Source: Desulfobacterales bacterium (lineage in GTDB: Bacteria; Desulfobacterota; Desulfobacteria; Desulfobacterales; JAHEIW01). From it: a stretch of 38,537 bases of DNA. The stretch lies in assembly GCA_041559695.1 (NCBI GenBank), contig JBFFCW010000003.1, positions 1 through 38,537 of the forward strand. Direction: 5' to 3'. Of the stretch, positions 5,557 to 38,131 are shown one piece after another; the stretch's first letter is position 1, and each line of letters opens with the position of its first letter. The notes under the pieces were generated by a model. The model was given only the letters and a program-made list of their open reading frames with translations. It had not been told where the DNA came from and did no database searches. The translations under genes and the position numbers were made by a program.

Positions 5557-6885
5557 TTATACCGCCCGGTACAGGTTGTTCATATATTCTACGGCAAATT
5601 CCCTGGCCATACTTCTATCGGGCATGGTGCCCAGCATGGCATACATGGCGGCCTGTTCCGAGAGGTCCTGGGAGTCGGCCGGGGGGACTTCAGGAGCGAT
5701 ACGGCGCAAGTCATCAAGGAATTTATCCGCAACCGGCAGATGCACCGGAGATACCGTCATGTGAAGGCTGGGCGGTAATTGCTGGGCTTCAATGTGCCAG
5801 CCGACCTCGGCCATCCGGGCCGACAGCTCGTAGATATTAATTTGGTCGCTGCTGAAAGCAAAAACGGTCGCATCCGGATCCCCCAGAACATATAGTTGCG
5901 GTATGGCGTTGATTCCTTCTATGAGTTTTTCAGTGGCCGCCCGGGCTTTTTGCGCCAGCGCCATAAAACCTTCCGCTCCAAGGTAATGCATTACCGCCCA
6001 TGCGGCCGCCATCGTGCCGCCGGGGCGGGCGCCGGCCAAACAGGGGGTTGCGTAAACGCCCCCGGACCAATCCGCGTAAGCAAAGATTTGAAATTTGCGA
6101 AAATCGCGGTTGCGGTACATAACGGTTGAAACCCCCTTGGGGGTATAAGCGTATTTATGGATGTCGGCCGAGATGGACGTCACACCCGGTACGCTGAAAT
6201 CATAGGGCGGAATTTTGTGTCCCAGGCGTTTTAGAAACGGCAGCATCAATCCTCCCAGGCAAGCGTCCACATGCAGCCAGAGGTTTTTCTTCTCTGCGAG
6301 CGCGCCAATTTCTTCTATCGGGTCTACCATGCCGTGTGGATAGGTGACCGCGGTGCCGCCTAAAATGATGGTGTTTTTCGTGATCGCGTTTTTCAGGGCA
6401 GCCACATCGGCCCGCAGGTCATCTTTTACCGGTGTCATAATTATTTTAAGTCCCAGATAGTGCGCGGCCTTATTCCAGGCCGGGTGGGCGGTTACCGGCA
6501 CCACCATCTCAGGCGCCTTAATCCGGGGATAGGTGTGCCGGGCCCAATCGCGAGCTGCTTTCAAGGCCATAAAAATACTTTCGGTACCCCCGCTGGTAAA
6601 GCTTCCGACGGTTTCATCGTCGCCGCCGCTCAAGGAGATGACGTTAGAAACCACTTCGGTTTCCATTTTTACCAGACTCGGAAAGGCCATCGGGCTCAGG
6701 CCGTTTTCAATCAAAAAAAGAGCGCTGGCCTCTTTTACAAGCGCCTCGACTTCCGGACCGGCTCCGTAAATCAGGCCGAACAGCTGGCCGTCATGCCATT
6801 TGACATCATCGGATTTAAATGACTTCAGGGTGTTCAACACGTCTTCTTTTGGCATGCCTTTTTTGGGCAGCGAGATTTGTCCCAT
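5557..6885 (-). CDS. PLP-dependent group II decarboxylase family, sphingosine-1-phosphate-lyase-like
   Basis: FTSGGTESI, AHPAWNKAAHY, LHVDACLGG, SISADIHKY (PLP Lys) and WSGGVYATP match the S1P lyase (Dpl1-like) branch; GGAGG RBS. Confidence 0.85.
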   Translation of the reverse strand: MGQISLPKKGMPKEDVLNTLKSFKSDDVKWHDGQLFGLIYGAGPEVEALVKEASALFLIENGLSPMAFPSLVKMETEVVSNVISLSGGDDETVGSFTSGGTESIFMALKAARDWARHTYPRIKAPEMVVPVTAHPAWNKAAHYLGLKIIMTPVKDDLRADVAALKNAITKNTIILGGTAVTYPHGMVDPIEEIGALAEKKNLWLHVDACLGGLMLPFLKRLGHKIPPYDFSVPGVTSISADIHKYAYTPKGVSTVMYRNRDFRKFQIFAYADWSGGVYATPCLAGARPGGTMAAAWAVMHYLGAEGFMALAQKARAATEKLIEGINAIPQLYVLGDPDATVFAFSSDQINIYELSARMAEVGWHIEAQQLPPSLHMTVSPVHLPVADKFLDDLRRIAPEVPPADSQDLSEQAAMYAMLGTMPDRSMAREFAVEYMNNLYRAV

Positions 6886-6959
6886 TCTCCATCCTCCGTT
6901 TTACTTTTAATATTTCACACCGGTACCATAACTGCACAAAGTACCAAGGGCATACTATA

Positions 6960-7015
6960 AGGTTTCGGGTGTCAGGTGTCAGGCTCGAAGAACAAAGGAT
7001 TCGAAACCCGAACAC
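6960..7015. repeat. Heptamer-arm palindromic element downstream of the four-helix-bundle gene
   Basis: AGGTTTC GGGTGTC AGGTGTC AGG (6960-6983), a short spacer, then the degenerate inverted arm CGAAACCCGAACAC (7002-7015). Confidence 0.8.
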
Positions 7016-7028
7016 TCAAGCTTAAAGC

Positions 7029-7499
7029 TTACTCCGTAACCGCTGGCCATCCATGCGGGAGAATTTCATCATTTGAGCCAAACACTTCCGGTTCCTCTGC
7101 TATTTGCCAGCGTTGCTCTCGTTCTGGGATCTTCCGCTCCAATGTTTTCTCTGATCCATTGAGCATGCGAATGCATTCTTTGCAAAGGCCCCGAAATTTT
7201 AAATATACCTCTTCGGAGATATATCCTTTGAGTTTAGCCATAAACAGGTGATGAATTGTCTCAGCTGCTTCACCTCGGCTGCGATTTACGCCTTCAATTT
7301 TATTACGGATATGCCGATCATCATTTTTCTCGGCAAGTTGGGCAGGTGCGCTGTTTGACGAATGCCTTGCCTGACTTCCCAACTCGTACTTCTCTTCTTG
7401 GGGCCAGGTGTGTGTCAAATCACAAACATCAATGTGCAACCGGCACAATTTTTTATAGACCTCAAGTTCCTCGACTTCCAAATAGTTCTTCGCAGTCAT
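7029..7499 (-). CDS. Four-helix-bundle protein (23S rRNA IVP-like family)
   Basis: ELEVYK...WPQEEKYELGSQARHSSNSAPAQLAE...SRGEAAET...AKLKGYI...IRMLNG is the family pattern. Start placed at ATG 7499 behind GAGAGGAG; the ORF-track extension to 7535 translates the repeat arm. Confidence 0.88.
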   Translation of the reverse strand: MTAKNYLEVEELEVYKKLCRLHIDVCDLTHTWPQEEKYELGSQARHSSNSAPAQLAEKNDDRHIRNKIEGVNRSRGEAAETIHHLFMAKLKGYISEEVYLKFRGLCKECIRMLNGSEKTLERKIPEREQRWQIAEEPEVFGSNDEILPHGWPAVTE

Positions 7500-7515
7500 T
7501 TCGCTCCTCTCAAAA

Positions 7516-7531
7516 CCTGACACCTGACACC
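7516..7531. repeat. Heptamer arm upstream of the four-helix-bundle gene
   Basis: CCTGACACCTGACACC is the exact reverse complement of 6968-6983 and abuts the symporter stop codon (7532-7534). Confidence 0.88.
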
Positions 7532-8893
7532 TCATATAGTTGGCCCCCAGAATTTAAGCGCGCGAATCAGCGCCAGCCCCACTGCCATCACGCCCAGAAA
7601 GACGAGCGAGGTGGCCCCAGCCCCCCAGTTCCACCAGACCGGGGCATTCACCAGCAGCAAACAACCGCCGATAGGCACGATGGAAAGGACATTCATCACC
7701 GCGATTTCGATGGCCACCGGAGTCTTAAAATCCGGGTCTGCGATCCGTAAAAGTAAAAGCCCGCAGGAGACGGTTCCGGTTACCGCCCCGTAGACAGCGG
7801 CCGTTCTTTCGAGGTTGTTGTCCCACAGGCGCTTTCCCAGGTAAACAACCATTATCGTGGTCAAAACGCCGTTGAGGATTGAAATCAGGAAAATGGGAAG
7901 CGCATATTTCCATACCACCAGAAATTGAATGGCCATCACCGTCGCCACGATCAGGAAATCGATGGACCATCCGGTAATTCTGCGCTGGATGCCGGGGTCA
8001 ATCAAATGTTGGGCACCAAATTTTTGGATCAGCATCCGGACGCAGATCGCAAAAAGAAGCCCGAACACAAAGAAAAATCCCCACATAATCTTAGCGGCAT
8101 CCGGCGGCAGCAGCAACCCCGTATATTTCACGAACCCGTAGGTCAGGAGGTAAACCAGCCCGACCAAGGCAGCCTGAAACGCCATTGAATCAACGTTGCC
8201 TGCATGCAGGGTCAGCTTACCGGCTGTTTCGGTCTGTTTGTCCCGGGGTATGATTCCGGTGAGAAAGTCCCGGGGTAACGCTTTCGCGCCGTAAGTGGCC
8301 AGCCCGTTTCGGATTCCCCGGTTGACGATCGGCACGCCCACAAAAAACGCAAACAGGTAACCGATGGCAGCAAAGGTCAGCCCGATTGTGGCGGCCTGTT
8401 CAAAGCCGAAACCCTCCCAGACTTTTCCGACCGACAGGGCCTGGCCGGGCCCTTCCTCAAATCCCAGGGGCGCCAGAAAACCAAACGTCGGAAAAAGCTC
8501 CATTCCCAGGACCCCGAAAAGTATGACCAGCAGACCGCCCACGGCCGCCTGCAGGCCAAAACACGAACCCTGGACCAGCGCCATCCAGGCCGGCCCCCGG
8601 ATAAACGCTTTGCCGCGGGGCGAGCTGTCTTTTTGGTCGGTGCTGTGGGTCAGCCCGACCGAAATAAAGGAGATATTGAAGAAATGATAGGCAAATATTT
8701 CCAGATCCGAAACGGCAATATTGATAACCCGGAAATTAACAAGGATCAGGCCGACGATGCCGCCGATGAGGCAGCTCGGAAAGAGAAATCTCTGAAAAAA
8801 GGGAACCCTGGCTCTCAGCAGCACGCCGATCAGCAGCATGCTTGCCAGCCAGCCGAAAACCAGCATGGATTCAAAAGGAAACGGGGCTGTCAT
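7532..8893 (-). CDS. Sodium/glutamate symporter (GltS/ESS family)
   Basis: Polytopic; PSCLIGG, GFEEGPGQA (variant of GGHGT), GLTFAAIG, YGAVTGTVSCGLLLLRIADP. Confidence 0.85.
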   Translation of the reverse strand: MTAPFPFESMLVFGWLASMLLIGVLLRARVPFFQRFLFPSCLIGGIVGLILVNFRVINIAVSDLEIFAYHFFNISFISVGLTHSTDQKDSSPRGKAFIRGPAWMALVQGSCFGLQAAVGGLLVILFGVLGMELFPTFGFLAPLGFEEGPGQALSVGKVWEGFGFEQAATIGLTFAAIGYLFAFFVGVPIVNRGIRNGLATYGAKALPRDFLTGIIPRDKQTETAGKLTLHAGNVDSMAFQAALVGLVYLLTYGFVKYTGLLLPPDAAKIMWGFFFVFGLLFAICVRMLIQKFGAQHLIDPGIQRRITGWSIDFLIVATVMAIQFLVVWKYALPIFLISILNGVLTTIMVVYLGKRLWDNNLERTAAVYGAVTGTVSCGLLLLRIADPDFKTPVAIEIAVMNVLSIVPIGGCLLLVNAPVWWNWGAGATSLVFLGVMAVGLALIRALKFWGPTI

Positions 8894-10882: not shown

Positions 10883-10997
10883 GGTTGAGCCCGTTGGCCC
10901 GTTAGCCCGTTTGCCGGTTAAAAACAACACCAGTCCTTTTCCTATCTTAATCGGCTTAACTGGCTCAATCGGCTCAACCGGCTCAACCGGCTCAACC
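10883..10997. repeat. Inverted tandem 8/9-mer element, GGCTCAACC family
   Basis: Left arm GGTTGAGCCCGTTGGCCCGTTAGCCCGTTTGCCGGTTAA (10883-10921); right arm TTAATCGGCTTAACTGGCTCAATCGGCTCAACCGGCTCAACCGGCTCAACC (10947-10997). Confidence 0.9.
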
Positions 10998-11005
10998 TGA
11001 CAATT

Positions 11006-12037
11006 ATGCTCGCCTATATTACGCGACGGTTTTTGCTTTTGATATTGGTGCTGTTCGGGGTATCGGTGCTGCTTTTTGGCATCTTTATGACCTTCAGCCC
11101 GGAACGCAGAGCCGCCGCCTACGTCACCTCTCCCCAGCAGGCCAAAGACATTCCCCGGATCATCGAGCAGTTCGGTCTGGATGATCCCTTTTACATCCAG
11201 TATTTCCGCTGGGTAAAAGAACTATCCCAGGGCAACCTGGGCTGGTCCCTTGTGGCTTCGCGGCCGGTGGGCGAAGCCTTCTGGAATTATTTTCCGGTCA
11301 CCCTGGAGATGAATCTGTTTGCGGCCCCCATTGTTATTATCTTTGGCATCTGGCTGGGGACCTTATCCGGTATCCACCGCAATACCTGGATCGACCATTC
11401 GACCCGAATTCTGGCGATTGTGGGCTGGTCGCTGCCCACCTTTTTCTTTGCGCTGGTTATGCTGATGGTCTTTTACGGCTACTTTCAAATTTTTTCTCCG
11501 GGTGTGATCAGCGACTATTTGTCCATGTCAATCATGGACAATCCGGAGGCGTTTACCCGCTACACCGGTTTATACACGCTTGACGGCATCCTCAACCGGC
11601 GCTGGGATGTTACCCTGGATGCGATGTCCCACCTGGTTCTTCCGGTTCTAACCTATGTCATCGTTGTTGTGGCACTAAACATGCGGGTGATGCGCTCGGG
11701 CCTGATCGAAGAGCTGTCCAAAGATTACGTGATTACGGCCAGAGCCAAAGGCGCCGATAACAAAACCGTTTATATCAAGCACGCCCGGCGCAATGCCTTG
11801 TTGCCGGTGATTACGGTGGCCGGTCAGATGGTGGCCCTGTCCATGGAGGGCAGCATTGCTGTGGAAGTGGTTTTTAACCGCCACGGCATCGGCTGGTGGC
11901 TGGCCGAATCGTCGATTCAACTCGATACACCGGTGCTGCTGTGTATTTGCCTGTTTATGGCGGTGGTGTTTGTCATCACCAATCTGACGCTGGATATGAT
12001 GTATGCGTATATTGATCCGAGAATACGGTTGAATTAG
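11006..12037 (+). CDS. Peptide ABC permease, DppB/OppB-like
   Basis: MLAYITRR, GLDDPFYIQY, DYVITARAKG (EAA loop), YAYIDPRIR. Confidence 0.93.
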   Translation: MLAYITRRFLLLILVLFGVSVLLFGIFMTFSPERRAAAYVTSPQQAKDIPRIIEQFGLDDPFYIQYFRWVKELSQGNLGWSLVASRPVGEAFWNYFPVTLEMNLFAAPIVIIFGIWLGTLSGIHRNTWIDHSTRILAIVGWSLPTFFFALVMLMVFYGYFQIFSPGVISDYLSMSIMDNPEAFTRYTGLYTLDGILNRRWDVTLDAMSHLVLPVLTYVIVVVALNMRVMRSGLIEELSKDYVITARAKGADNKTVYIKHARRNALLPVITVAGQMVALSMEGSIAVEVVFNRHGIGWWLAESSIQLDTPVLLCICLFMAVVFVITNLTLDMMYAYIDPRIRLN

Positions 12038-12127
12038 TTCTATTAGTTAAATTGGTTCAATTGGTTATGTCTCCGAGGACGCTTTATAAACAAATTAAAC
12101 CAATCAAACCAATCAAACAAATGAAAC
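12028..12127. repeat. Inverted tandem 9-mer element, AAACCAATC family
   Basis: Left arm GTTGAATTA GTTCTATTA GTTAAATTG GTTCAATTG GTT (12028-12066, overlapping the dppB stop); right arm TAAACAAAT TAAACCAAT CAAACCAAT CAAACAAAT GAAAC (12087-12127). Confidence 0.85.
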
Positions 12128-13077: not shown

Positions 13078-13332
13078 TTTTGGACAGGATTTACAGGATT
13101 AACTGGATATTTTTTTGGCTTTCCGGATGAAAGCCAAAAATCTCAATCGCCTTCGGCGAATAAACATAATTTAAATTCCCATGATATTGGTTACTTGAAA
13201 GTATGCTGCTGCCATTAAAATACATTGAGTGGTTTTTCCCGCCGTCAGGCGGGATTGGGTTTCATCACTTTCTTCTGGAAAGTGATGAAAAATAAAAATA
13301 ATCCTGAATAATCCTGTAGATCCTGTCTAAAA
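13078..13332. mobile_element. MITE-like element, about 255 bp, with ACAGGATTT tandem terminal arms and four internal hairpins
   Basis: Left arm TTTTGGACAGGATTTACAGGATTAACTGGAT (13078-13108); right arm AATCCTGAATAATCCTGTAGATCCTGTCTAAAA (13300-13332). Internal hairpins at 13112-13140, 13147-13159, 13237-13254 and 13260-13290. Mobility is inferred. Confidence 0.7.
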
Positions 13333-14506: not shown

Positions 14507-14593
14507 TCACCGCCCGCTTCGCTAAAGCCGCAGAGGGCGCAGAGAAACAAAATATAAATAAAAAACTTTGCGATCTCTGCGTCTCTGCGGTGA
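14507..14593. repeat. CGCAGAG-family palindromic element, second copy
   Basis: TCACCGC...CCGCAGAGGGCGCAGAG, AT-rich spacer, CTTTGCGATCTCTGCGTCTCTGCGGTGA. The right end is identical to 756-774. Confidence 0.88.
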
Positions 14594-14604
14594 GAAATGG
14601 CAAA

Positions 14605-15633
14605 ATGGACAAAATACTGGAGCTGAAAAATCTGAAAAAGCACTATCCCATTTTAGGGGGAGTGCTGCGCCGGGAAGTCGGCACCGTCAAAGCTCTTGAT
14701 GGGATCGACCTGGATATCTATCGCGGGGAATGTCTCGGGGTGGTCGGAGAATCAGGCTGCGGCAAGACCACTGCCGGAAAAGCAATCATCCGCCTGTTCA
14801 AGCCGACCGGCGGACATGTTTATTATTACCGCAAAGGCGCTGAATCTATAGTGCCGGCGGATCTTGCCCACGAGAAAAAGTCCCGTATTAAAAAACTCGG
14901 CCTGCGCGGCAGGTTGCAGATGGTCTTTCAGGACCCCACTACCTCGCTGGATCCCCGCATGCTGATAAAACATATTGTTGCCGAACCCATCAAAACCCAG
15001 AAACGGATGAGCGGCCGGGATCTGGAAGAGCGGGTTCTGGAATTGCTTAATCGGGTGGGTTTAACCCGGGATCATCTGCTGCGCTATCCGCATGAATTTT
15101 CCGGCGGGCAGCGGCAGCGGATTGCGGTCGCCCGGGCGATTGCCACCGATCCTGAGTTTATCGTGCTGGATGAACCGACCTCTGCCCTGGACGTATCGGT
15201 TCAATCACAGATTCTCAACCTGTTAAAGTCTCTGCAGCAAACCCTGCATTTAACCTATATGTTCGTCACCCACCACCTGCTGGTGGTCAAATACATCAGT
15301 GATCGGGTGGCGGTGATGTATCTGGGAAAAATTGTAGAAATTGCCGACACCCGGGTTATCTTTTCGAAACCGGTACATCCTTATACCCATGCGCTGATGT
15401 CCGCGATCCCGATTCCGGATGTCGCCTATCAGCAGCAGCGCATCGTTTTGAGCGGCGATGTACCCAGCCCCGCCAATCCACCGGCGGGCTGCCGATTTCA
15501 CACCCGCTGTCCCTTTGCCGTTGATCGTTGCCTGACCGAAGAACCGCTACTTGAAGCCGTGGAAACCGGACATCTGGTGGCCTGCCGTCGCAAACATGAA
15601 ATGGAAAAGCTAGTGGCCGAAAGATTTGGCTAA
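14605..15633 (+). CDS. Peptide ABC ATPase, DppF/OppF-like
   Basis: [38 protein letters not shown] 14605 is preferred because GTG 14590 lies inside the repeat. Confidence 0.93.
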
Positions 15634-38029: not shown

Positions 38030-38131
38030 GGTTGGCCGGTTGAGCCCGTTAGCCCGTTGTGCCCGTAAGAAAGTACCCCGTTCCATTTTTAACGGGCTAA
38101 ACTGGCGCAACCGGCTCAACGGGCTCAACCG
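38030..38131. repeat. GGCTCAACC-family inverted tandem element, second full copy
   Basis: Left arm GGTTGGCCGGTTGAGCCCGTTAGCCCGTTGTGCCCGTAA; right arm TTAACGGGCTAAACTGGCGCAACCGGCTCAACGGGCTCAACCG. Confidence 0.9.

Follow-up and report, generated by a model that had tools for sequence, protein, structure and literature searches.

A PF05635 four-helix-bundle gene between inverted tandem heptamer arms: a probable intervening-sequence-type element outside rRNA in a Desulfobacterales genome

Introduction

In Coxiella, the intervening sequence (IVS) of the 23S rRNA carries two to three tandem GACAGAT heptamers just upstream of the S23p open reading frame (ORF), and it is closed by a 28-bp terminal stem in which RNase III cuts (PMC4990558). 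The same paper describes a variable copy number of the heptamer and a decaying ORF, and the element is regarded there as selfish and possibly mobile. Members of the protein family concerned, PF05635, have also been described in 16S and 23S rRNA insertions of CPR bacteria (bioRxiv 10.1101/2024.02.27.582315), and PF05635 has been reported as the commonest family in the neighbourhoods of DGRs (PMC10053308). The DGR accessory protein Avd is a pentameric barrel whose five protomers all grip an RNA stem-loop through the same residues (bioRxiv 10.1101/2023.10.23.563531). PF05635 is still called uncharacterised in recent literature (PMC4990558, PMC10053308, bioRxiv 10.1101/2024.02.27.582315). A second group of sequences is formed by intergenic tandem heptamers, which have been recorded in cyanobacteria, Beggiatoaceae, Bacteroidetes and Geobacter with no explanation of their origin or role; they form many families, such as TAACTGA in Beggiatoaceae and the heptanucleotides of Geobacter, which occur exclusively in intergenic DNA, are patchy across distant phyla and have no assigned function (PMC4679880, PMC2700814).

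Here we describe a PF05635 gene of a Desulfobacterales bacterium that is enclosed by inverted arrays of tandem heptamers, and we compare the locus with these systems.

Results and discussion

Architecture of the element

We analysed positions 1 to 38,537 of contig JBFFCW010000003.1 (GenBank assembly GCA_041559695.1), hereafter called the window; the genome is designated G000. The four-helix-bundle gene lies on the minus strand (7029..7499) and encodes 156 amino acids plus the stop codon at 7029-7031. The ATG at 7499-7497 is the likely start and was preferred over a longer ORF from 7535, and a GGAG ribosome-binding site, read directly from the minus strand (7504..7507), is located 4 nt upstream of it, between the 5' arm and the start codon. 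As the initial annotation had stated, GGTGTCAGGTGTCAGG at 6968-6983 and its exact reverse complement at 7516-7531 bracket the gene, forming a perfect 16-nt inverted repeat (100% complementary) with a spacing of 532 nt, which lengthens to 22 nt at 86% (6956-6977 / 7515-7536). TRF reports both arms as tandem arrays. The left arm (6960..6983) consists of 3.4 copies of AGGTGTC, read as AGGTTTC, GGGTGTC, AGGTGTC and AGG, and is on the gene's (minus) strand the 3' arm CCTGACACCTGACACCCGAAACCT. The right arm, ACCTGACACCTGACACCT (7515..7532), consists of 2.6 copies, is on the gene's strand the 5' arm AGGTGTCAGGTGTCAGGT, and ends 16 nt before the ATG. The third, degenerate arm that had been noticed just past the gene is also present as GAAACCCGAACACT (7002..7015), comprising two AGGTGTC-family units in the opposite orientation 14 nt beyond the stop codon. 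When up to two mismatches were allowed, the double AGGTGTC unit matched four times in the window, all at this locus (expected 0.07; 0/100 shuffles reached four).

The element sits in an intergenic gap between co-directional protein-coding genes. Downstream lies a gene for a PLP-dependent decarboxylase (PF00282; 5557..6885, minus strand), and upstream one for a 453-aa membrane protein (7532..8893, minus strand), whose stop codon (7532-7534) abuts the arm end at 7531, so that the arm directly follows the upstream stop as annotated. The name 'symporter' given to this membrane protein has as its sole basis a protein-atlas likeness of 0.98 to Na+/glutamate symporter clusters, and no Pfam or NCBIfam match was found for the protein. 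Beyond the direct neighbours, the next two ORFs encode a CHASE2 cyclase and a binding protein of the SBP_bac_5 type, and the reported lack of an adjoining transposase or integrase agrees with these identifications of the direct neighbours. No separate promoter was found upstream of the four-helix-bundle ORF; a promoter-like CTGACA-17-TATAGT (6954..6982, minus strand), a 10/12 consensus match only, has its -35 inside the arm and faces the decarboxylase gene. An Rfam search of 6500-8000 at E values up to 1 gave no match.

It had been proposed that the arms pair in RNA, and as a prediction this is borne out by the fold. The RNA of the whole element (6956..7536, minus strand) is predicted to pair the arms in a long-range stem of 16 bp perfect, or 22 bp at 86%, with an MFE of -193.3 kcal/mol (z -4.6; 0/100 shuffles as stable), and this closing stem would enclose the ribosome-binding site, the ORF and the inner arm. 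No local pairing partner exists for the 5' arm, and the local hairpin downstream of the gene, between the inner arm and 6964-6973 (10 nt, 90%), is weak (-20.1 kcal/mol, z -0.95). In the IVSs of Coxiella burnetii and Leptospira a PF05635 ORF is likewise enclosed by terminal inverted repeats forming a stem, and in Coxiella tandem heptamers likewise stand upstream of the start. Unlike those IVSs, the element described here is located between protein-coding genes and not in a 23S or 16S rRNA helix. A further difference is that its arms are members of a hairpin family spread through the intergenic DNA of the whole genome (about 218 arrays in this 3.9-Mb MAG), with the unit itself polymorphic and present at several loci. 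In addition, the gene is under purifying selection (dN/dS 0.06-0.18), unlike the ORF of the Coxiella IVS, and RNase III processing, which is established for that element, is here a prediction by analogy.

Protein fold and relation to Avd

The protein matches PF05635 with an E value of 3.8e-22 (79 bits against a cut-off of 33.8) and TIGR02436 with 2.3e-20 (72.8 bits against 24). The AF2 model (pLDDT 83) contains four helices (residues 13-29, 34-59, 64-90 and 96-121) and a disordered acidic tail (134-156). Foldseek matched it to XCC0516 (2gsc, TM 0.90-0.93), BT_0352 (2rld, TM 0.74-0.88) and Avd (4dwl, TM 0.88), and also to the DGR RNP entries 8ub7 and 8ube. A PDB search with the single protein sequence gave no match, and a profile of the family alignment matched 2rld and 2gsc; both of these solved homologues have five chains per entry. 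The protein thus has the same fold as Avd. Unlike Avd, with which its sequence identity is about 8%, the AGGTGTC lineage has a neutral core (net charge 0, pI 7.0) and an acidic tail, where the Avd barrel is basic; most other four-helix-bundle lineages are basic. The genetic setting also differs from that of a DGR, as no reverse transcriptase (RVT_1) match was obtained in G000, which is 72% complete, and no long direct repeats or template/variable repeat pair were found around the gene.

Arms accompany the PF05635 family

We searched the genus for PF05635 genes and obtained 104 family matches, from which the 13 weakest or partial ones were excluded to leave 91 genes; six with short flanks were then set aside, leaving 85 evaluable genes. 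Flanking inverted arms scoring at least 26 were present at 59 of the 85, compared with 6/728 control ORFs of 100-200 aa and 9/550 cross-lineage permuted pairs. A periodicity test was passed by 44 of the 59 arms, 36 of them at period 7, and by none of the six control arms. The expectation that other family members carry tandem arms was therefore confirmed, with units that differ from gene to gene: in G000 itself, one further family gene has ATTGGGT arms (C431), and another has an array of CATTTTAG on its one readable side (C368). The arm unit was AGGTGTC in 11/11 genes of cluster 1, CTAAAGTGA in 6/6 of cluster 2, GGATTGC in 7/7 of cluster 3, GTTATTN in 5/5 of cluster 5 and GTGTTTR in 4/4 of cluster 6, while two sublineages, a 138-aa type (including G000:C172) and the 146-aa cluster 8, have no arms. 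The protein alignment excludes G014:C212, which contains a stop codon. The two arms of one element resemble each other more than they resemble the arms of sister elements (mean score 37.2 for own arms versus 28.2 for foreign arms; 0/2000 permutations reached the own-arm mean). These results indicate that the arms are real and specific to the PF05635 gene family, and that nearly every branch of the family has its own type of repeat arm.

The association extends beyond the genus. In the AGGTGTC lineage (80 loci, two with short flanks excluded) arms were found at 49/78 loci, and arms of AGGTTTC, AGTGTTC or AGGGTTC type occurred in Verrucomicrobiota, Victivallales, Lentisphaerales and Lacipirellula MAGs at 62-75% amino acid identity. 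In a 121-aa lineage (79 loci, one with short flanks excluded) they were found at 48/78, with NAGARGN-type units in Desulfobacterota, Omnitrophota, Planctomycetota and Bacteroidota. Among family loci in five MAGs from other phyla, 16/27 had arms (30 loci, from which the partial matches L207, L209 and L211 were excluded). Two protein lineages hence retain their unit type across phyla. Cultured carriers are Maribacter ulvicola DSM 15366, Maribacter sp. R77961, Ulvibacterium marinum and Desulfosarcina widdelii PP31.

Here, we need to consider that the arms might be the nearest halves of two ordinary hairpins or terminators that happen to flank a small resident gene. AGGTGTC is the commonest array family of the genome, and at C110, C286, C159 and C49 hairpins of one family in successive intergenic gaps do bracket ordinary genes. 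Against such a coincidence stand the missing local partner of the 5' arm, the same layout in 11/11 copies of the AGGTGTC lineage at no fewer than five loci, the low count of positive control ORFs (6/728), none of which has tandem units, and the existence of empty alleles (see below). The lineage-wide arms and the control ORFs refute this explanation unless the flanks are assembly artefacts, and we give it almost no credence.

Presence, absence and copies at other sites

All of the comparative genomes are MAGs or drafts, in which repeats readily cause breaks and mis-binning. Ten genomes of the genus have both flanks of the locus (locus 1) adjacent; three contain the cassette (G000, G010 and G031) and seven have an empty site (G018, G002, G013, G011, G014, G005 and G015), so that the gene is not fixed and the empty alleles that had been looked for exist. 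In G005 the empty locus 1 carries an AGGTGTC-family hairpin with the same arm positions and a loop of about 95 nt without a gene. At locus 2 the cassette is present in G005, G010, G017 and G031, and the empty site in G000 (C129) is a gene-free allele with same-family arms at the same positions. Further cassette loci are G015:C198, G002:C77 and G014:C253. Besides locus 1, at least five loci contain the unit from arm to arm (window 6959/6960 to 7527/7534), and its copies there are scattered singly and not arrayed. Both arm junctions are spanned by contigs from independent runs; contigs of RNA libraries (X13 and X16) also span the element with both junctions, which as contigs are not evidence of transcription or of RNA ends. 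Based on these observations, we conclude that the gene and its arms move as a unit, being present or absent at locus 1 and found at other sites.

In the tree of the upstream membrane protein, G000 nests at 100/100 support among gene-less genomes that have a different hairpin, and on the decarboxylase side its identity to G031 is 91.7%. Part of the pattern of presence and absence could stem from differential loss after a multi-copy ancestor, or from allelic transfer through flank homology.

Among the contigs of four runs, no excised, cleaved or joined form and no circle was found with adequate flank support. Skips of 527-530 nt (6982/6983 to 7511/7513) were considered as an excised form or empty allele and rejected: their sides match over 19-21 nt with other letters between them, and they represent other AGGTGTC hairpins of the metagenome. 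Loose contig ends at 6960 and 7531/7532 reflect arms or cassettes in other contexts in those metagenomes. The six junction pairs read showed no consistent target-site duplication; the inverted ends are present, and no transposase was found.

The initial annotation had likened the locus to an IVS or an integron cassette. The first half of the analogy fits the Coxiella architecture well, and the second half does not hold. In that second reading, a site-specific recombinase would recognise the folded arms as it does an integron attC, and the cassette would leave and enter the DNA in circular form. Integron cassettes and MITEs do share with this locus a small ORF or none, bounds of structured or inverted repeats, and polymorphic presence, and the small ORF, for which no separate promoter was found upstream, also suits a cassette. 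Unlike an integron cassette, however, the element has two inverted arms rather than a single attC, it adjoins no integrase, its copies are single and scattered, and no adequately flanked joined form was present in the run contigs, so that we regard this explanation as highly implausible. The locus also appears to differ from MITEs and insertion sequences, with no transposase found and no evident target-site duplication at the junctions read, and from MITEs in that its empty forms share only heptamers with the loaded form.

Genome-wide arrays and the role of the gene

Cyanobacterial STRR sequences are intergenic tandem heptamer repeats. The arrays in G000 are similar in unit length; unlike the described intergenic heptamers, they are inverted pairs forming hairpins and are tied to one gene family. 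The abundant TRF families of G000 (ACACCTG with 112 rows, AAACACC, AAATCCG, ACTGAGG, AACGAAT, AATACCC, AATATTCC, AACCTCTG, AAACCAATT and AAAGTGACT) have the units that serve as arms in the four-helix-bundle lineages of the genus. Since exact AGGTGTCAGGTGTC counts were too narrow, a degenerate pattern, RGGTKTCRGGTKTC, was used to compare genomes; the gene was found in 5/14 genomes with at least 20 matches and in 0/87 with fewer, a threshold set after the counts were seen. By the query used, 9 of the 14 array-rich genomes are without the gene, among them one of the same genus that is 97% complete; examples are G028, G067, G064 and G004 with 194, 172, 138 and 88 matches and completeness of 77-97%. 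AGGTGTC-type arrays are thus abundant where the gene lineage was not found, and therefore the arrays do not need the gene; a strict dependence on it is ruled out.

The proposal that the cassette is the gene-loaded form of empty elements was upheld in the sense that same-family empty hairpins occupy the same positions in G005 and in G000:C129. These hairpins have only the heptamers in common with the cassette. Neither the subterminal 87 nt nor the subterminal 46 nt of the cassette occurs a second time in G000, and because no subterminal sequence is shared, the empty hairpins are not simple deletion derivatives, which excludes a MITE-like derivation. On one point the proposal is corrected: the other tandem-arm elements of the window belong to other unit families, and further AGGTGTC arrays lie in the rest of the genome. 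As to a resident enzyme, Y1 transposase (PF01797) gave no match in G000 (72% complete), as was the case for reverse transcriptase; both retro-mobility and Y1-driven mobilisation were accordingly set aside, with the reservation that absence is not proven at this completeness.

These data allow a reading in which the hairpins are independent, either terminator-like structures of the host or selfish ones, and the gene is a passenger moved among those of one family by homologous recombination or template switching across the arms, its protein being unrelated to the arms. The empty alleles with same-family arms, the abundance of hairpins without the gene, the lack of a mobility enzyme and the restriction of shared sequence to the arms all agree with it; the flank identities of G000 suggest allelic exchange with a G031-like donor, and the neutral protein core argues against nucleic-acid binding. 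It leaves unexplained, however, why tandem arms occur at 0/728 control ORFs and inverted arms at 59/85 PF05635 genes, and why a unit type is kept across phyla at 60-75% amino acid identity. Moreover, arms of no more than 14-30 nt would be short substrates for exchange of the RecA type. We consider this reading rather unlikely, although it is the strongest of the competing explanations.

The REP/REPIN systems offer another comparison. In these, a low-copy RAYT gene is flanked by inverted copies of a short intergenic repeat that forms hairpins; RAYT lineages differ with the repeat families, the RAYT is a Y1/HUH transposase, and the REP is a single palindrome. By analogy, each four-helix-bundle lineage would be a trans-acting partner, or 'master copy', that spreads, keeps or uses one hairpin family, for example as an RNA-stem regulon. 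The gene does lie between inverted copies of a repeat found in intergenic regions across the genome, just as a RAYT lies between REPs, and the correspondence between abundant array units and arm units, the confinement of the gene to array-rich genomes, the joint divergence of protein and unit, and the grip of five equivalent Avd protomers on an RNA stem also point this way. The likeness has limits: the protein is a four-helix bundle from a family with no known catalytic activity and not a Y1/HUH transposase, units of 7-9 nt are repeated in tandem where a REP has one palindrome, the heptamers are all that the empty hairpins have in common with the cassette, and the arrays persist in the nine array-rich genomes where the gene was not found. 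In addition, G000 has many array families and only four four-helix-bundle genes at 72% completeness. A partnership of this kind is in our view improbable, more so than the passenger reading.

Proposed model and its meaning

Taken together, we favour as the probable explanation that the locus is an IVS-type element outside rRNA, in which a PF05635 gene and two inverted AGGTGTC-family heptamer arrays occupy what in relatives is the site of just a short tandem-arm hairpin. In a read-through transcript the arms would close a stem of 16-22 bp around the ribosome-binding site and the ORF. The closed stem would be a substrate for RNase III, as in the 23S rRNA IVS, and the element might thus be cut from the host RNA with little harm. 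An Avd-like and probably pentameric protein may read the periodic arms, one protomer per unit, which would explain why each lineage keeps its own unit. Since neither a transposase nor a reverse transcriptase nor a Y1 transposase was found, movement presumably relies on the arms, and the simplest route would be an exchange with same-family hairpins already resident. The excision, the mechanism of mobility and the binding of protein to arm are inferences.

A bolder extension, which we put forward tentatively and hold to be possible rather than likely, is that four-helix-bundle proteins are sequence-specific readers of periodic stems and that their cassettes founded the many tandem-hairpin families that populate the intergenic regions of these bacteria, possibly including those of the STRR type and the heptamers of Beggiatoaceae. 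The pentamer of each lineage would recognise its own 7-9 nt unit with one protomer per unit, in a REP/RAYT-like partnership built on a protein that is not a transposase.

Our literature search, largely confined to papers outside subscription journals, found no paper that connects PF05635 genes in general with flanking tandem repeats. PMC4679880 does not mention 'four helix', 'S23' or 'intervening sequence', and PMC2700814 does not mention 'four helix' or 'intervening sequence'. The present results suggest that the ORF of the rRNA IVS and the intergenic tandem heptamers belong together. The rRNA IVS would then be one special landing site of a wider class of cassettes with lineage-specific arms, and the same repeats would populate the genome as hairpins. 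Regarding the element as an intergenic passenger would also give a simple reason why family genes are found inside operons such as cas loci. Both puzzles become testable, through binding of the protein to its own arms and cutting of the stem by RNase III. If the bolder reading is true, it would provide a function for a family that has been without one since 1993, and an origin for intergenic heptamer repeats.

Organization of the element

The initial annotation placed a four-helix-bundle gene between exact inverted arms, and this layout was confirmed. The arms, GGTGTCAGGTGTCAGG (6968-6983) and the reverse complement of that sequence (7516-7531), form an inverted repeat that is perfect over 16 nt and lengthens to 22 nt at 86%. 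They enclose a minus-strand gene of 156 aa (7029-7499), and both consist of tandem AGGTGTC heptamers (3.4 and 2.6 copies by TRF). When the double AGGTGTC unit was searched with at most 2 mismatches, all 4 matches in the window fell at the element, against 0.07 expected. The gene belongs to PF05635 (E 3.8e-22) and TIGR02436 (E 2.3e-20) and carries GGAG 4 bases 5' of its ATG. The upstream 453-aa membrane protein, the four-helix-bundle gene and the PLP decarboxylase are all encoded on the minus strand. As first described, the right arm lies directly against the membrane protein's stop codon, but the name symporter reflects only protein-atlas features resembling a Na+/glutamate symporter, and the protein has no Pfam or NCBIfam match. 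A third, degenerate arm noted just past the gene's stop was identified as two AGGTGTC-family units in the opposite orientation (7002-7015); the local hairpin open to it is weak (z -0.95). Since contigs of runs from other studies span both arm junctions with zero mismatches, the arrangement is no product of misassembly in the metagenome-assembled genome (MAG) holding the window (G000). We also observed a promoter-like site (10/12) on the minus strand at 6954-6982, with CTGACA in the arm as a -35-like element and TATAGT 17 nt downstream, which points toward the decarboxylase gene.

Tandem arms in the gene family

G000 contains four PF05635 genes. Outside the window, the gene on contig C431 is flanked by ATTGGGT arms (767-796 and 1277-1305) with no alternative partner, that on C368 is bordered by a CATTTTAG array on the only side readable on the contig, and that on C172 has no arms. 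The reading frame of the C431 gene (869-1201) is interrupted by TAA close to its start while its arms are intact, and single stops occur in several other genus copies (G004:C38, G014:C212, G006:C56, G016:C101 and G014:C253). At C172:2780-2830, the arm-less 138-aa gene adjoins a small ORF read from its sequence as ribbon-helix-helix-like, 5' of which lie five tandem ATAACGNN octamers resembling operator repeats.

A genus search gave 104 PF05635-family matches in 21 of 22 genomes, and the scored set comprised 80 + 7 matches and the 4 of G000, with the 13 weakest of the 104 excluded. Arms, defined as an inverted repeat scoring at least 26 between 200 nt upstream and 250 nt downstream, were present around 59 of the 85 genes with readable flanks, compared with 9/550 cross-lineage permuted flank pairs and 6/728 G000 ORFs of 100-200 aa. 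In the six positive control ORFs the repeats were operator palindromes or AT-rich matches, and none had tandem units; among these ORFs are two small regulators that read as ArsR-like (G000:C31:8092-8406 and G000:C119:6120-6446), found as control hits only, with matching AT-rich palindromes upstream and downstream. A strict periodicity test was passed by 44 of the 59 arms, 36 of them with period 7, and by none of the six control arms. In the median, the 5' arm ends 29 nt before the start and the 3' arm starts 36 nt past the stop.

The arm unit is specific to each protein cluster: AGGTGTC/AGGTTTC in cluster 1, the window's lineage (11/11 positive), CTAAAGTGA/CTAAAATG in cluster 2 (6/6), GGATTGC/GGATTTT in cluster 3 (7/7), GTTATTN in cluster 5 (5/5), GTGTTTR in cluster 6 (4/4), TGGAATA in cluster 7 (3/3) and CAGAGGA in the 121-aa sublineage of cluster 0 (4/5). 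Among the genus genes, arms are missing from cluster 8 and, within cluster 0, from the 138-aa sublineage. Some ORFs run into tandem arms and acquire repetitive C-termini (...RLNRLNL), as in L027 (G010:C14:2409-2723) and the upstream ORF at G000:C431:760-800, and the stop codons of neighbouring genes frequently lie inside or right against an arm.

Hairpins across the genome

The window is contig C3 of the G000 assembly (3.9 Mb, 487 contigs, 72% complete), in which TRF reported 2125 short tandem arrays (1756 once merged), mostly with periods 7, 8 and 9. AGGTGTC is the commonest heptamer family (112 TRF rows). By regular expression, arrays of at least two AGGTGTC-family units numbered 100 forward and 118 reverse; for 68 of the forward ones a reverse partner lies no more than 700 nt away, and the loop is almost always shorter than 150 nt. 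When all families were considered, 201 arrays had an inverted partner scoring at least 26, with a loop of at most 150 nt in 171. These 171 were placed in ORFs (8), at contig edges (22) and in co-directional (103), convergent (28) and divergent (10) gaps, and comparison with the background of 1235, 355 and 297 gaps, respectively, indicates that promoter-only gaps are depleted. Based on these array, loop-length and gap-type counts, the usual form of tandem-arm elements is a short hairpin with tandem-repeat arms, 3' of genes.

The element had been viewed as the gene-loaded form of empty tandem-arm elements elsewhere in the window. Several hairpins are indeed present, but all belong to other unit families, and the window holds no further AGGTGTC array. 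Six are intergenic with arms of tandem 8-10 nt units, for example GTTGGCCC/GTTGAGCC, GTTCAATTA and ACAGGATTA (746-825, 10884-10997, 12028-12127, 13084-13108 with 13297-13316 across a loop of ~190 nt, 14569-14615 and 38031-38129). Heptamers are the only sequence common to empty hairpins and the cassette, that is, the gene with its two arms. Since CAGCAAACAGATGAC-like sequence trails many AGGTGTC arrays in G000, the sequences suggest that one hairpin family nests inside another. At G000:C129:1770-1960, where four relatives carry the cassette (locus 2 below), degenerate AGGTGTC-type outer arms surround a nested AAACCAATT-family hairpin.

Across the order (101 genomes), the gene lineage was found in 5, all within the 14 genomes with at least 20 RGGTKTCRGGTKTC matches and in 0/87 with fewer (hypergeometric P ~2.5e-5, with the threshold chosen after the data were seen and the gene's own arms adding up to ~11 of the matches). 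It was not found in nine array-rich genomes, one of them a 97%-complete genus member. Neither a reverse transcriptase nor a Y1 transposase was found in the 72% complete G000.

Occupied and empty sites

We compared the window's site (locus 1) across the genus with a 1.7-kb query, followed by flank comparison. Locus 1 is occupied in G000, G010 and G031 and empty in seven genomes (G018, G002, G013, G011, G014, G005 and G015), where ~117-243 nt separate the decarboxylase start from the symporter stop; the gene is thus not fixed. Five empty sites (L007, L008, L009, L012 and L021) carry a CACAGAC-type hairpin of another family, and two (L020 and L015; G005 and G014) carry AGGTGTC-type arms. In G005 these form a hairpin with arms positioned as in the window around an unrelated loop of ~95 nt, and in G014 they enclose 243 nt. 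Because one intergenic site bears different unit families in species of one genus, tandem-arm hairpins turn over fast at fixed sites.

Arm-to-arm matches to the window element (6959/6960-7527/7534) were found at other loci with 75-85% identity. At locus 2, which adjoins a LexA-like gene, the cassette is present in G005, G010, G017 and G031 and absent from G000, and three more cassette loci lie in G015/G033, G002 and G014. In the symporter-flank tree, G000 is nested with 100/100 support among the gene-less CACAGAC-hairpin genomes G002, G018 and G013; its decarboxylase-side flank is equally close to G031 (91.7%) and G018, and the closest copy to its gene is that of G031 (91%). Based on these comparisons, the sequences point to a gain of the cassette in the G000 line, possibly through allelic exchange. 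Purifying selection acts on the gene (dN/dS 0.06-0.18 in 22 pairs with finite dS). Both tests named in the initial annotation, arms on other family members and empty alleles, thus support its interpretation.

Distribution beyond the genus

For relatives of the window protein, 80 loci in named MAGs were collected, and arms were positive in 49 of the 78 with readable flanks. AGGTTTC/AGGTGTC/AGTGTTC/AGGGTTC-like units are kept in Verrucomicrobiota, Victivallales, Lentisphaerales and Lacipirellula records at 62-75% aa identity; in several GC-rich Lentisphaerae and Kiritimatiellae copies no arms were detected. Ten loci (L125, L147, L150, L153, L165, L170, L172, L173, L129 and L162), labelled Verrucomicrobiota, Victivallales, Lentisphaerales, Lacipirellula, Lewinellaceae and Sumerlaeota, hold close relatives (62-75% aa identity) with related arms. 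Such close relatives in MAGs of other phyla reflect either inter-phylum transfer or, on short contigs, mis-binning. In 70 elements of the window's lineage, the two flanks of one element paired with each other at a mean score of 37.2, versus 28.2 with the flanks of other elements, and the own-arm mean was reached in 0/2000 permutations.

The 121-aa lineage was positive at 48/78 loci, with NAGARGN-type units in Desulfobacterota, Omnitrophota, Planctomycetota and Bacteroidota that drift to AGTAGGC/AGTAAAA types at ~50% identity. In five MAGs of other phyla, 16/27 PF05635 genes were positive.

RNA, protein and known systems

In the predicted fold of the minus-strand RNA (7545-6950), the 5' arm pairs with the 3' arm (-193.3 kcal/mol, z -4.6), and this long stem encloses the RBS and the ORF. 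The 5' arm by itself has no local pairing partner, and no convincing promoter or terminator was seen inside the element. The arms had been proposed to pair and loop the gene out; the predicted pairing agrees with the first part, but contigs of read runs contained neither an excised nor an empty form of the window locus.

The protein was modelled as a four-helix bundle, and the model matches XCC0516, BT_0352 and Avd. Both solved homologues have five chains in the crystal. The core of the window lineage's protein is uncharged; most lineages are basic. In the DGR ribonucleoprotein, as outlined in a preprint (bioRxiv 10.1101/2023.10.23.563531), one RNA stem-loop is held by the whole Avd pentamer, each of the five protomers using the same residues. 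The 23S rRNA intervening sequence (IVS) of Coxiella (PMC4990558) has a 28-bp terminal stem within which RNase III cuts and 2-3 GACAGAT heptamers, variable in number, just 5' of the S23p start codon. The window element shares this anatomy of terminal stem and heptamers before the start codon. From the predicted stem, the Coxiella anatomy and the Avd-RNA precedent, we infer that RNase III would process the arm stem and that the protein may read the arms periodically. Several results speak against bolder readings of the element: the heptamer-only overlap with empty hairpins, the nine array-rich genomes in which the gene was not found, the lack of a reverse transcriptase or Y1 transposase match in G000, the uncharged core of the protein and the failure to see an excised or empty form of the locus among reads.

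Of the two analogies first drawn, to an IVS and to an integron cassette, the former holds, since apart from its location the element shows the anatomy that defines an ORF-bearing IVS, but the latter does not. The element is also not a DGR and probably not a classical MITE. Its layout is like that of a REP/RAYT pair, whereas the protein differs.

Separate pieces are on record, and the literature searched gave no statement of a family-wide link between PF05635 and tandem arms. Intergenic heptamers are known in several phyla (PMC4679880 and PMC2700814), and PF05635 occurs in DGRs (PMC10053308). The family has also been linked in the literature to CRISPR adaptation modules, and 18 of its genes lie in cas loci, one of them flanked by cmr3 and cmr2 in Pleurocapsa PCC 7327. 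An intergenic passenger cassette would account for PF05635 in cas loci without any CRISPR function.
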